IMG/VR virus record: IMGVR_UViG_2529292908_000016
From: a virus
Lineage: Duplodnaviria; Heunggongvirae; Uroviricota; Caudoviricetes
Strand: one strand, 5' to 3'
Length of the DNA stretch: 9,709 nt
The position numbers were made by a program, and so were the translations under genes. Under the pieces are notes generated by a model that saw nothing but the letters and a program-made list of their open reading frames with translations, did no database searches and was not told the DNA's origin. The number at the start of each line of letters is the position of its first letter. Position 1 is the stretch's first letter. Below are positions 1 through 3,922 of the stretch, piece after piece.

Positions 1-315
1 CTCCATCTGGTTAAAGGCGTTGATGTATGCCTCTTTGAACTGGGCAGCACGTTTACCAGTGAAGCCCATGGCAAGAAACGCAAAACCGTCGCGGGTGATT
101 TGGTAACAAGGGAGTTTGCGGCCTGATGCGTCGGTGTATTCACTTAACACAAAATTGTGTTCAGTAAATTCAGCGGAACATTCGAGGTTTCTAATTCTAT
201 CTAAAACCCGCTCATGCCGTTTAGTAAAGTAATTAGCTACTGCAAGAGATGTGGTGACAACGCGACCATTGATAATCGTGATTTCAGGGCGAGATTGGGT
301 TGGGAGAGTAGTCAT
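1..315 (-). CDS. Rha-family phage regulatory (antirepressor-like) protein, N-terminal part; CDS continues beyond the left window edge
   Basis: Manual reverse-complement translation gives MTTLPTQSRPEITIINGRVVTTSLAVANYFTKRHERVLDRIRNLECSAEFTEHNFVLSEYTDASGRKLPCYQITRDGFAFLAMGFTGKRAAQFKEAYINAFNQME with no stop down to position 1. This matches the conserved layout of the phage Rha domain (RH..VL..I..L, ITRDGF, MGFTGK..FK.AYI.AF). Start ATG at 315..313 has a weak GGGG Shine-Dalgarno about 11 nt upstream. The frame stays open upstream to an ATG at 618, so the true start is uncertain. Not in the ORF track because it has no in-window stop. Confidence 0.8.
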   Translation of the reverse strand, partial: MTTLPTQSRPEITIINGRVVTTSLAVANYFTKRHERVLDRIRNLECSAEFTEHNFVLSEYTDASGRKLPCYQITRDGFAFLAMGFTGKRAAQFKEAYINAFNQME

Positions 316-701
316 GGTGACAGCCCCTATGTTGAATTCAATGAACTCACCACCAAGGCTTTCCACGACCATATAGGTGGTGAGACGTACAGGGGTGGAA
401 ATACCGGTCAACATAGAACCCGGCCCAACCGAAGTTGGCCCTGCACGCCCCACCATAATTTGGGCGTAACGATGCTCATGACACGAAAAAACCGCATGAG
501 CGCGGTTGTGCTCTATATTGAATTTCGGGTTTCCACGCCCGGCACCCGCTTTATAAGGTGCAGAGACAGTGTAACGTCCCGAAATTGCAGAATCAATATT
601 TGGTCTTGAAATGATCATATAGCTGCTGATATCTTTAGAACTGTTCTTGGATGTTTCAGAGCCGTTTTATGCGAAACAGCTCCCCGTTATTGATGTTGAG
701 T

Positions 702-727
702 GAGCCGGGTTACTCCCGGCTTTTTTT
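702..727 (+). terminator. Rho-independent terminator, plus-strand orientation (GCCGGG-ttact-CCCGGC stem-loop followed by T7)
   Basis: Perfect 6-bp GC-rich stem at 704..709 and 715..720, 5-nt loop, then seven T at 721..727. On the minus strand the same hairpin is preceded by A-run and not followed by U-run, so it is a canonical terminator only for plus-strand transcripts. Confidence 0.6.
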
Positions 728-1434
728 CACCGCTGCCAACCAATAACCTGAAATAACCCCATTTTCGGGTGATACCAGCGAGTCCCTCGCGGTTCTGCTT
801 CCTCCATAACCCGATAAAAAGCAGCCATAAACGGTTCCACAGCAACAATTGCGCGACGTGACAACAATCCGTCCGGCGTCATGAACTCATGGGTGTCTGT
901 AGGAATCTGATAGGCGTTCACCAGATTGCGGCATTTATCATCTGACAAACCGGTTTTTGCTTTCAGTTGGCGATATCCGGCATAGCCCTCACGAATAGTG
1001 CCCTTTTTAATTTGCTCGACTGTTTCAGCAACGTGGCTGACTTTTTCTTCCACCTGAGTGATCCGTTTCTGTTGGCGAACGGCTTCAAGAGCCATCGCGG
1101 CAACCATTTCGATTTCGCTCATTGGCTTACGGATCTGTTCTTCCAGTTCGCGCCAGCGATCTACCAGGCGAGCTGTGAATTCAGGACAGAGCTGTGCGAC
1201 GACAATGATGCTGTCGCGCTTACCTCGTTCACCTTCGAATACATACGCGCTAGAAAATCGGCGAGGCCCAAGTGATTGTTTATTCTCAATTTCCACAGTC
1301 TGTGGAAATTGGATGATTCCCTTTTTAGCCAGTGTTTCAATAGTTCTCTTAACACTATCTGGTCGGCTTCCCACCAGCTCTGCGATCTCAACGCTGGTCA
1401 TGGATGCTTTGCCGTTAAAAATTGCGGTGTTCAT
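727..1434 (-). CDS. Phage regulatory protein with N-terminal winged-helix DNA-binding domain (Rha/ORF6N/antirepressor-like)
   Basis: 235-aa ORF; AGGAGA Shine-Dalgarno 6 nt upstream of ATG at 1434..1432. N-terminal segment SVEIAELVGSRPDSVKRTIETLAKKG resembles the helix-turn-wing pattern of Rha/antirepressor N-domains; the C-terminal half is unrecognised. Stop TGA at 729..727. Confidence 0.65.
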   Translation of the reverse strand: MNTAIFNGKASMTSVEIAELVGSRPDSVKRTIETLAKKGIIQFPQTVEIENKQSLGPRRFSSAYVFEGERGKRDSIIVVAQLCPEFTARLVDRWRELEEQIRKPMSEIEMVAAMALEAVRQQKRITQVEEKVSHVAETVEQIKKGTIREGYAGYRQLKAKTGLSDDKCRNLVNAYQIPTDTHEFMTPDGLLSRRAIVAVEPFMAAFYRVMEEAEPRGTRWYHPKMGLFQVIGWQR

Positions 1435-1658
1435 TGTTGGTCTCCTGTGGGCTTGTCATCTTCTGTATTCGCTAGACTTGGGTGTGTATATGGAATGCTC
1501 GGATCCAGATGACAAAGAATGGCAACATCCTCCGGAACACCTCGCGTTTTCCACTTTCCAACACCTTGACTGCCACGAGGCCTTCCTTTCTTTGGGAACC
1601 TGCGACCAATAGCGGCATTGGTTTTAAATTGAATTTTTAATATTTCATAAAGGGTCAT
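1431..1658 (-). CDS. Hypothetical small basic protein (75 aa) in the cro-like position; ATGA-coupled to the downstream gene
   Basis: Its stop TGA (1433..1431) overlaps the ATG (1434..1432) of the 727..1434 gene, a typical translational-coupling arrangement. Sequence is Gly/Pro/Arg/Lys-rich with no recognisable HTH and the Shine-Dalgarno is weak (GAGA), so coding status is uncertain. Confidence 0.3.
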   Translation of the reverse strand: MTLYEILKIQFKTNAAIGRRFPKKGRPRGSQGVGKWKTRGVPEDVAILCHLDPSIPYTHPSLANTEDDKPTGDQQ

Positions 1659-1769
1659 TCTTTAGTCTCACACCAGATACTTTGTTATCCAACGATGTTA
1701 ACCACAGGAACCCAAAGTATCAAGAAATTCTGTTACTTTAGTATCAACAGCCATGAGAGGAGAAGAAAA
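1659..1769. promoter_or_regulatory. Divergent control region between the leftward operon and the CI-like repressor gene, with repeated operator-like motifs
   Basis: Motif CAAAGTATC at 1713..1721 (plus), its reverse complement GATACTTTG at 1676..1684, and a degenerate copy TTTAGTATCAA at 1737..1747. Candidate leftward promoter read on the minus strand: TTGATA, 17-bp spacer, TAACAT, overlapping the motifs. Confidence 0.5.
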
Positions 1770-2426
1770 ATGAAGTCTTTAGGTGAACGTCTCATCAACG
1801 CACGGCAAAAAGCTGGGTTAACACAAGATGCGTTGGCTAAAAAAGCTGGGGTCACCAGAGTTGCAATCAGTAAAGCCGAGCAAGGCCTTACAAAAAGTTT
1901 CAACGGTGACACCCTTTTTAAAGTTGCAGCTGCACTGCGGTGTTCACCGCAGTGGCTTCAGAACGGAGATGAAAAAGATAAGCATTGGGAAAATAATGTT
2001 AAGAGCTGCCCACAGAGAGACACAGCACACTCTTACCCTGTAATTAACTGGGTTCAGGCAGGATTATTCGCAACTTCTGGTGATGACTACAACATGTATG
2101 ATCAGGATAATTGGAGGCATTCTGTAAAATACGCTGGTGAGAGGGGGTTCTGGCTGGAAGTGCACGGAGACTCAATGACTTCGCCCGTAGGAATAACATT
2201 TCCTGAAGGAATGTCGATCCTTGTCAACCCAGATAAAGAAGTTTTTTCAGGGTGTTACGTCATCGCCAGAAAAAAATCTACCAATGAAGCAACATTCAAA
2301 AAATATATTTCTGACATGGGAAAGGCGTTTCTAAAGCCCCTTAATCCACAATATCCAATCATAGAAATGGACAATGATTGCGAAATAGTAGGTGTTGTGG
2401 TTGATGCCAGGTGGGATATTTTCTGA
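1770..2426 (+). CDS. CI/LexA-like phage repressor: N-terminal XRE-type HTH plus C-terminal S24 peptidase (autocleavage) domain
   Basis: Strong Shine-Dalgarno GAGAGGAGA 6 nt before ATG at 1770 (the track ORF begins further upstream at 1695 on a weaker start). N-terminus MKSLGERLINARQKAGLTQDALAKKAGVTRVAISKAEQG is a classic HTH. C-terminus has the S24 hallmarks: an Ala-Gly linker (VQAGLF), GDSM serine motif and a downstream Lys (ARKK). Confidence 0.85.
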   Translation: MKSLGERLINARQKAGLTQDALAKKAGVTRVAISKAEQGLTKSFNGDTLFKVAAALRCSPQWLQNGDEKDKHWENNVKSCPQRDTAHSYPVINWVQAGLFATSGDDYNMYDQDNWRHSVKYAGERGFWLEVHGDSMTSPVGITFPEGMSILVNPDKEVFSGCYVIARKKSTNEATFKKYISDMGKAFLKPLNPQYPIIEMDNDCEIVGVVVDARWDIF

Positions 2427-3721: not shown

Positions 3722-3922
3722 ATGCATCAGAAAACAGCAGAACACGAACAAACCAGAGTATTGCTGACCATCAAAAACGGGAAAGTAATATTCATTCGCC
3801 ATGTTCATGACGATGAACTTGTAGGAACTCTTTCAACATTCCTGTTTATTGCAGAAAAGGCAGGATATGACGTTATTGCACCAGCAGATGAAGATGAAGA
3901 TGAAGATGAAGATGAGGAATAA
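3722..3922 (+). CDS. Hypothetical small protein (66 aa) with a poly-acidic C-terminal tail (DEDEDEDEDEE)
   Basis: GGGAGA Shine-Dalgarno 5 nt before ATG at 3722. The C-terminal tail is encoded by a (GATGAA)4-GATGAG tandem repeat. The next gene starts 5 nt after the stop. Confidence 0.6.
   Translation: MHQKTAEHEQTRVLLTIKNGKVIFIRHVHDDELVGTLSTFLFIAEKAGYDVIAPADEDEDEDEDEE
3887..3916 (+). repeat. Tandem hexanucleotide repeat (GATGAA)4 plus GATGAG inside a CDS
   Basis: Read directly at 3887..3916; in frame, encoding alternating Asp-Glu. It also supplies the GAGGAA Shine-Dalgarno for the downstream gene. Confidence 0.9.

Follow-up and report, generated by a model that had tools for sequence, protein, structure and literature searches.

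Two immunity RNA genes lie within a conserved open frame upstream of a prophage Rha gene, a likely counterpart of the P4 eta control region

The 101 codons that lie open in front of a phage Rha gene likely form a dual-use control region of the kind known from eta of phage P4. The region occupies positions 618..316 on the minus strand of the window, by which we mean the whole stretch of DNA that was analyzed (9,709 nucleotides of IMG/VR virus record IMGVR_UViG_2529292908_000016, Caudoviricetes). Judging from its sequence, it belongs to a P1-immI/P4-type module in a lambdoid Escherichia coli prophage, and transcripts from the PR promoter would be translated through it. By computation, we identified RNA genes, complementarities that covary, a masked Shine-Dalgarno (SD) sequence, conservation of the frame and of its starts, and homology to P4 eta. 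Passage of ribosomes is probably the reason why the frame is kept open. This translation-bypass step is much less firm than the identity of the RNA elements. IsrK, C4, Phage_ASH, and the P4 eta type of arrangement were already known; here, the nested gene is Rha and the setting is a lambdoid prophage.

The Rha gene, the open frame in front of it, and the operon to which they belong comprise the following features.

316..618, minus strand: putative eta-like, or "Ash," part of the long open reading frame (ORF), 101 codons (translation, PF10554, RefSeq start, homologues)
1..315, minus strand: Rha-domain coding part, the nested gene, which continues beyond the left edge of the window
1434..727, minus strand: Roi-like/weak-Rha helix-turn-helix (HTH) gene in the same operon (ORF, Pfam and PHROG matches)
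1658..1431, minus strand: gene in the cro position, upstream in the same operon (ORF)
1723..1695, minus strand: PR-like promoter (promoter-like site)
1695..2426, plus strand: divergent CI-like HTH/S24 repressor (Pfam and PHROG matches)

The Rha ATG (315..313) and an in-frame ATG (618..616) are exactly 101 codons apart on the minus strand, and the first in-frame stop 5' of ATG618 is the TAA at 669..667, as the first-pass annotation of this DNA had claimed. That annotation also correctly placed the Rha domain, since the Pfam pRha match begins about 20 residues past the Met at 315, and it correctly noted a Cys/His cluster in the translated extension (...FSCHEHRYAQ...) and the lack of an evident SD for ATG618; the preceding 20 nt (ctaaagatatcagcagctatATG) indeed contain none. 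Its description of the extension as Gly/Pro/Arg-rich was partly borne out: these residues are enriched, but only moderately, making up 25% of the 101 residues together. Contrary to what had been stated, the DNA is not GC-rich: its GC content is 49.8% over 316..618 and 0.46 to 0.51 in the surrounding part of the window. When the mononucleotides of 316..666 were shuffled, the 117-codon openness persisted in only 0.23% of cases, and the other two sense frames of that segment contain 4 and 7 stops. The openness of the Rha frame over 316..666 thus exceeds chance, and composition is no trivial explanation for it. We rejected GC-richness as the cause of the absent stops on the grounds of the GC value and of the normal stop density in the other two frames. 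We likewise rejected a gene on the opposite strand (a 131-aa ORF at 214..609, plus strand) because each antisense frame accumulates 17 to 21 stop columns in homologues.

The nested gene belongs to the Rha family (PF09669 Phage_pRha, 108 bits versus a threshold of 29.9; TIGR02681, 101.7 versus 45.95). The full protein has 284 aa, as seen in a nearly identical locus of E. coli (99.9%). The RefSeq protein of that length (WP_000587267.1) begins at the equivalent of ATG618, so that the extension is its N-terminal part. The gene order is that of a lambdoid early region: CI-like repressor, PR-like promoter, cro-position gene, Roi-like gene, and Ash-Rha. Past the window, homologous loci continue with two small ORFs, an O-like initiator, a helicase loader, and a DnaB-like helicase.

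Other features of this neighborhood were recorded in passing. The Roi-like gene (727..1434, minus strand) shares the reading frame of the Ash-Rha ORF, with two stops between them, and in locus L166 a frameshift near the 3' end of Roi makes a single frame of Roi and the Ash ORF, with 334 open codons upstream. On the plus strand, a promoter-like sequence (TTGAAA-18-TATCTT with TG) lies at 606..635, and a strong intrinsic terminator (stem 702..722, then T7) lies directly after the Roi-like stop. Together (606..729), the two could produce an oop-like antisense RNA, about 85 nt long, from the interval that separates the Roi-like gene from the start of Ash-Rha. A weak, sub-threshold match to sroD (24.5 bits) falls at 667..727. 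Farther away, a 66-aa ORF at 3722..3922 (plus strand) has an acidic end (DEDEDEDEDEE).

The open frame passes over two RNA genes of known families, together with sites that are complementary to one of them.

568..596, minus strand: putative internal promoter, an inferred PisrK and analogue of P4 PLE (read from the sequence)
485..561, minus strand: IsrK/seqA-like sRNA (Rfam RF01394, 61.6 bits versus a gathering threshold of 50)
536..530, minus strand: site a1, GUGGAAA, within IsrK, complementary to C4 a'
521..510, minus strand: site b1, UCAAUAUAGAGC, within IsrK, complementary to C4 b'
507..490, minus strand: stem of the intrinsic terminator of IsrK, followed by a U-run (terminator scan)
373..460, minus strand: C4/P4-CI-type antisense RNA (Rfam RF01695, 82.4 bits versus a gathering threshold of 45)
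456..454, minus strand: AUG equivalent to that of orf45, inside the C4 5' stem
419..408, minus strand: C4 loop b', GUUCUAUGUUGA, an exposed sequence
401..395, minus strand: C4 site a', UUUCCAC, an exposed sequence
360..366, minus strand: target site a2, GUGGAAA, 7 bp with a'
335..325, minus strand: target site b2, UCAACAUAGGG, 11 bp with b', overlapping the Rha SD
328..324, minus strand: Rha SD, AGGGG, under b2

The C4 match (460..373) covers model RF01695, a member of clan CL00128 (P1 C4/P4 CI type), in full (positions 1-87 of 87). In P1 and P4, the mature C4/CI RNA is cut from the leader transcript by RNase P. A sub-threshold match to c4-a1b1 (RF03163) at 522..574 overlaps IsrK. The 262-nt RNA running from 561 to 300 has a predicted folding energy of -107.7 kcal/mol (z = -4.95), and its minimum free energy structure shows the C4 fold. 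Rfam isrK and C4 matches were also found in four annotated phages and in P4, and a single long ORF through both RNAs is annotated in ST64B (Sb41), cdtI (orf44), Stx1_14040 (Ant), and PhiR49_2.

To compare homologous leaders, we fetched 80 IMG/VR loci using the Rha domain alone as the query. The 73 usable loci plus the window gave 38 distinct upstream sequences. The 27 C4 base pairs were kept in 36 to 38 of the 38 sequences, 10 of them with double-sided (compensatory) changes. In the window, a' can form 7 bp with a1 and 7 bp with a2, and b' can form 12 bp with b1 and 11 bp with b2. These three-way sets (a1/a'/a2 and b1/b'/b2) covary, with 16 distinct combinations among the 38 leaders. For the a-sites there are four variants, and a2 changes together with a' and a1. 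The b':b2 duplex averages 11.1 bp for cognate pairs versus 5.3 bp when the partners are not cognate. The b2 site extends, in most types, into the GAGG or GGGG found about 8 nt 5' of the ATG. Because b2 covers the Rha SD in the window, pairing with C4 would mask the Rha start at 315.

A candidate promoter for the RNA genes lies inside the long ORF. It has a -35 TTGATT (596..591), a 17-nt spacer, and a -10 TACACT (573..568), and the 5' end of isrK (561) falls 6 nt past the -10. The -10 hexamer is invariant over the 38 leaders, and the -35 is nearly so (TTGATA in 2 of 38). Our promoter scan did not call this site because, with 8 of 12 consensus matches, it scores below the scan threshold; activity of the homologous isrK promoter has been demonstrated in Gifsy-1 (PMC4825925). 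ATG618 sits 5' of the -35, and no stop interrupts the frame from there to 315 or past it.

This frame is maintained among homologues. Each of the 38 distinct leaders has 103 or more open codons in the Rha frame, while the other frames contain 2 to 9 stops each. In the 38-leader alignment, no column with a stop trinucleotide occurs in the Rha frame, the two remaining sense frames have 20 and 18 distinct ones, and no antisense frame is open. If columns are taken as independent, the probability of zero stops in the Rha frame is (2/3)^38 = 2e-7, a value to be read with the caution that the sequences are related and recombining. The test was significant for either half of the segment alone. Spacing points the same way. 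The distance from the ATG618 column to the Rha ATG is 303, 300, or 297 nt and nothing else. From the -35 to the C4 AUG, 67 of 68 distinct modules measure 141 or 138 nt, and from the C4 AUG to the gene ATG the distance is likewise 141 or 138 nt; the independent indel events behind these multiples of three are few, about three or four. The single module at 140 nt (L032), in which the frame is lost, may be a frameshifted or decaying copy or may reflect a sequencing error.

These observations bear on what had been proposed for the extension at the outset. One suggestion, a decaying upstream gene, is contradicted by conservation of the structure in many prophages: the layout is preserved in hundreds of E. 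coli genomes and in P4. Another, a leader that lacks stops by chance, was half right, as the region is indeed a regulatory leader, but the absence of stops is conserved rather than accidental. Whether the extension is under constraint received a split answer, since homologues keep the frame but substitutions lack codon periodicity. The annotation had also held that homologues starting at the equivalent of 315, or an absence of codon periodicity, would count against a coding extension. The substitutions indeed show no periodicity, but the homologues keep the extension in frame. From the sequence comparisons, the frame stays open and startable while the peptide is unconserved. Selection probably acts on the openness of the frame, with the extension peptide itself lacking function.

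In-frame starts are conserved across unrelated surroundings. Of the 34 upstream contexts, 33 have such a start just 5' of the -35. Several contexts have a strong SD before it (e.g., GGGAGGTGCACCTATG, AAGGAGGTTCGCCTATG, and GGAGGGATGCGGCGTG), and some relatives have stop-start junctions such as TAAATG. In ST64B and cdtI, the long ORF starts by an ATGA overlap with the upstream gene. The context of the window, which is common to 31 loci, shows no such coupling: ATG618 lacks an SD and follows the Roi-like stop after a gap of 108 nt, so initiation there is possibly weak. In the commonest context (L003, approximately 1177..1500, cdtI orf44; L002, ST64B Sb41), the long ORF extends about 100 codons farther upstream (MNSLTANNRLSQQ...), and it is this lengthened ORF that begins with the overlap on the previous gene. 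Locus L023 lacks exactly 291 nt of this upstream extension, an in-frame indel. The 291-nt insert of the ST64B/cdtI-type loci had no Rfam match, and its translation is not protein-like.

Despite the conserved frame, the leader could be purely untranslated: isrK and C4 would then be its sole function, and descent together with constraints on the RNAs would account for the absence of stops. We consider this unlikely. Rfam matches and covariation do account for the conservation of nucleotides, and variability is flat over codon positions in the extension (0.54/0.58/0.55) versus the third-position-biased coding signature of the Rha domain (0.25/0.17/0.71). An untranslated leader would also fit the missing SD at ATG618 in the window, as well as the observation that the Gifsy-1 region is conserved in nucleotides and not in amino acids (PMC4825925). 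However, the frame is defined only by translation, and yet, over 10 or more divergent specificity types, stop columns number 0 in this frame versus 38 in the other two. Between IsrK and C4, the spacer varies greatly and differs in length by a 3-nt indel, but it too stays open. Moreover, the in-frame starts, often with a strong SD, lie just 5' of the promoter in many unrelated contexts, and the homologous eta of P4 is translated and required, according to the literature (PMC10111431).

A narrower version of translation is that only the uORF from AUG 456 is used, as in orf45 of Gifsy-1, which would give Rha plus 47 residues and leave 618..457 never translated. This AUG is conserved (IMVGRAG motif) and sits at the position of the first AUG of Gifsy-1 orf45 (transcript nt 107), from which translation and coupling have been demonstrated by experiment (PMC4825925). 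The 54 codons 5' of 456 are nevertheless equally free of stops, with all 18 stop columns of that part falling in the other frames ([2/3]^18 = 7e-4). These upstream codons are preceded by conserved in-frame starts, and Gifsy-1-type loci have stops right before the AUG, unlike the subfamily of the window. We regard exclusive use of AUG 456 as improbable.

Slightly less probable still is a genuine "Ash domain," a peptide with its own biochemical function as the N terminus of Rha: inclusion in PF10554, phrog_821, and phrog_995, a conserved frame with start codons, and the listing of Rha/Ash domain proteins beside cI in Stx phages (PMC8951638) speak for it, but third-position bias is absent, amino acids are replaced wholesale along with the RNA specificity loops, conservation tracks RNA stems and target sites, and the downstream fusion partner varies among unrelated genes (those for Rha, a small Rha-like protein, a small protein outside the Rha family, and an Icd-like Kil).

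The extension matches Pfam PF10554 (Phage_ASH) at 35.4 bits (cutoff of 26; residues 16-111 from ATG618), or at 34.7 bits when the full 284-aa protein is used. Since it matches a known family and is annotated in RefSeq, the extension is not novel; the early suggestion of a novel N-terminal domain is right insofar as RefSeq treats it as the N terminus of Rha, but the family is known and no constraint was seen at the amino acid level. PF10554 also matches the P4 eta ORF, which runs across the isrK/seqA and C4/CI matches of P4, over the full model (82 bits). Some papers equate Ash with P4 epsilon, the helper derepression protein, and a survey of P4 satellites took PF10554 as a marker for epsilon (PMC8628076). 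In our P4 locus, epsilon (L205, 1389..1676, minus strand) corresponds to PF25738 and is unmatched by PF10554, while the ORF of the eta/cI region lies at 1669..2313 (minus strand). A 137-aa "cI gene product, transcriptional repressor" is still drawn over the P4 CI RNA in RefSeq. What the Ash family represents appears to be the seqA-CI-seqC RNA region in translated form. This may resolve an annotation puzzle, in that the "Ash domain" beside cI in Stx phages, whose function has been called unknown (PMC8951638), would be the translated image of IsrK/seqA and C4/CI RNAs.

A pattern scan for the C4 core separated two architectures. In the through-ORF class, to which the window belongs, the Ash part is fused to Rha, to a 119-aa Rha-like protein, to a small non-Rha protein, or to other genes. 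In the Gifsy-1-like class, stops fall just 5' of the AUG and uORFs span 8 to 45 codons. Four loci (L094, L135, L179, and L181) have a C4-AUG frame that stays open for about 130 more, non-protein-like codons and continues into an integrase-like protein, with a through-ORF of 416 codons downstream in all. Some loci carry tandem Ash modules, of which the first gene is labeled "ash family protein" in RefSeq (L104; L105; L121, with three copies; L163 and L180, with copies about 656 nt apart; L187, with copies about 870 nt apart; and L207, 1613..3123). Each tandem copy has its own SD-ATG, isrK, and C4, followed by a 119-aa Rha-like or full Rha gene, and the copies that we compared (e.g., those of L121 and L163) differ in their a/b specificity sequences.

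We propose that the eta-like region operates in two modes. In the lysogen, by homology with known systems, the internal promoter (596..568) would start a transcript at approximately 561. This position is downstream of ATG618, so the internal transcript cannot express the long ORF. Most transcripts would end at the intrinsic terminator and yield an IsrK/seqA-like RNA of about 77 nt. Those that read through would give rise to the C4/CI-like RNA (460..373), whose a' and b' would pair with a2 and b2 and block the Rha ribosome-binding site (RBS), possibly with polarity. The decoy sites a1 and b1 in IsrK would modulate this block.

Upon derepression or infection, transcripts from the CI-controlled upstream promoter would include ATG618, a mode suggested by the comparative evidence and the P4 precedent. 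Ribosomes would then move in frame over both RNAs, the IsrK terminator, and the target sites into Rha and produce the 284-aa Ash-Rha protein. Their transit would prevent the RNA folds, the antisense block, and polarity, and Rha and the downstream replication genes could thereby be expressed despite RNA immunity. Two considerations weigh on this part of the proposal. First, read-through translation is not universal in the C4 family, since in Gifsy-1-type relatives a stop precedes the C4 AUG and the uORF is no more than a short one. Second, antitermination of the N type could remove the need for a ribosome-mediated bypass of the terminator.

For lambdoid E. coli prophages, we judge it an even call that the Ash part of Ash-Rha is a lane for ribosome transit over two immunity RNA genes, without a function for the peptide. 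If true, PR transcripts would override both the terminator and the C4 block, while transcripts from the internal promoter would stay noncoding and provide a second, RNA-based layer of immunity. Ten or more exchangeable specificities would be available to this layer, in some cases through modules stacked in tandem, and the eta mechanism of P4 would generalize to a class of Stx and lambdoid phages that is widespread. Our analysis indicates that many E. coli prophages carry an RNA immunity switch in the style of P1 and P4 within the early operon that continues into the replication genes, with a bearing on prophage induction, Stx phages included. It also calls for caution, because extensions like this one can be misread from sequence alone as protein domains or as plain untranslated regions.

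The module resembles several known systems. In the immI region of P1 and P7, a C4-family RNA is processed from the very transcript that it controls. Its loops a' and b' pair both with a1/b1, which lie upstream, and with a2/b2, which cover the RBS of the following gene, and specificity types vary from phage to phage. Homology of the elements in the window is backed by the RF01695 and RF03163 matches. The regulated gene differs, however, being Rha directly in the window and icd, followed by ant, in P1/P7.

The isrK-orf45-anrP region of Gifsy-1 shares with the window an IsrK sRNA with its own promoter (inferred in the window), a downstream C4-like region (STnc1160 in Gifsy-1) with an AUG in the same position, and an antirepressor-type gene downstream. 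The Gifsy-1 terminator is leaky, as that of the window is proposed to be. Experiments in that phage established that translation from the AUG equivalent to 456 is coupled to the downstream antirepressor and that IsrK in trans activates downstream translation (PMC4825925). The same authors noted that the nucleotide sequence, and not the amino acid sequence, is conserved (PMC4825925). Gifsy-1 has a separate 45-codon uORF with a stop overlapping the anrP start (AUGA). The window has no such uORF: AUG 456 shares the frame of the Rha ATG, which follows 47 codons later with no stop in between. Likewise, Gifsy-1-type loci have a stop 1 to 7 codons before the C4 AUG, whereas the frame in the window is unbroken from 618 into Rha. 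As for the Phage_ASH family, the extension exceeds its gathering threshold but here lacks constraint at the amino acid level.

The closest parallel is with satellite P4, whose nested-gene eta/kil immunity system was published by Forti et al. in 1999 (J Bacteriol 181:5225, as summarized in PMC10111431). In both P4 and the window, the elements come in the order of ORF start, internal constitutive promoter (putative in the window), seqA/isrK, CI/C4, and target sites, and the target sites cover the RBS of a shorter, nested gene that shares the reading frame. Both are matched by the same Rfam (C4 and isrK) and Pfam (Phage_ASH) families. Furthermore, the P4 ORF contains EAAIMATTLTPSHPE (EAAIMATT), the in-frame start of the 65-aa kil, and this motif resembles the EAAIMATIPTLTQPE (EAAIMATIPT) Rha starts among relatives of the window. 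P4 Kil (eta ORF residues 161-208) matches NCBIfam NF033153, "host cell division inhibitor Icd-like," which ties kil to P1 icd in the same position downstream of c4. The two systems differ in the nested gene (a 183-aa Rha-family regulator in the window versus the 65-aa Icd-like Kil in P4), in the host element (a lambdoid prophage with a cro-roi-...-replication operon versus a satellite), and in the isrK-C4 spacer (24 versus about 107 nt). In addition, IsrK has a clear intrinsic terminator in the window, unlike in P4, and the P4 ORF start overlaps the upstream alpA-like ORF88, whereas the ORF start in the window is uncoupled. In the published summary, Kil is a truncated Eta produced on read-through, full-length Eta comes solely from the upstream regulated promoter and is coupled to the alpA homologue, and translation of eta, which is functionally required, stops termination (PMC10111431). 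The same paper counts Phage_ASH among the domains of a "Bro-network" and reports that Rfam C4 and isrK find relatives of CI and seqA inside genes of this network (PMC10111431).
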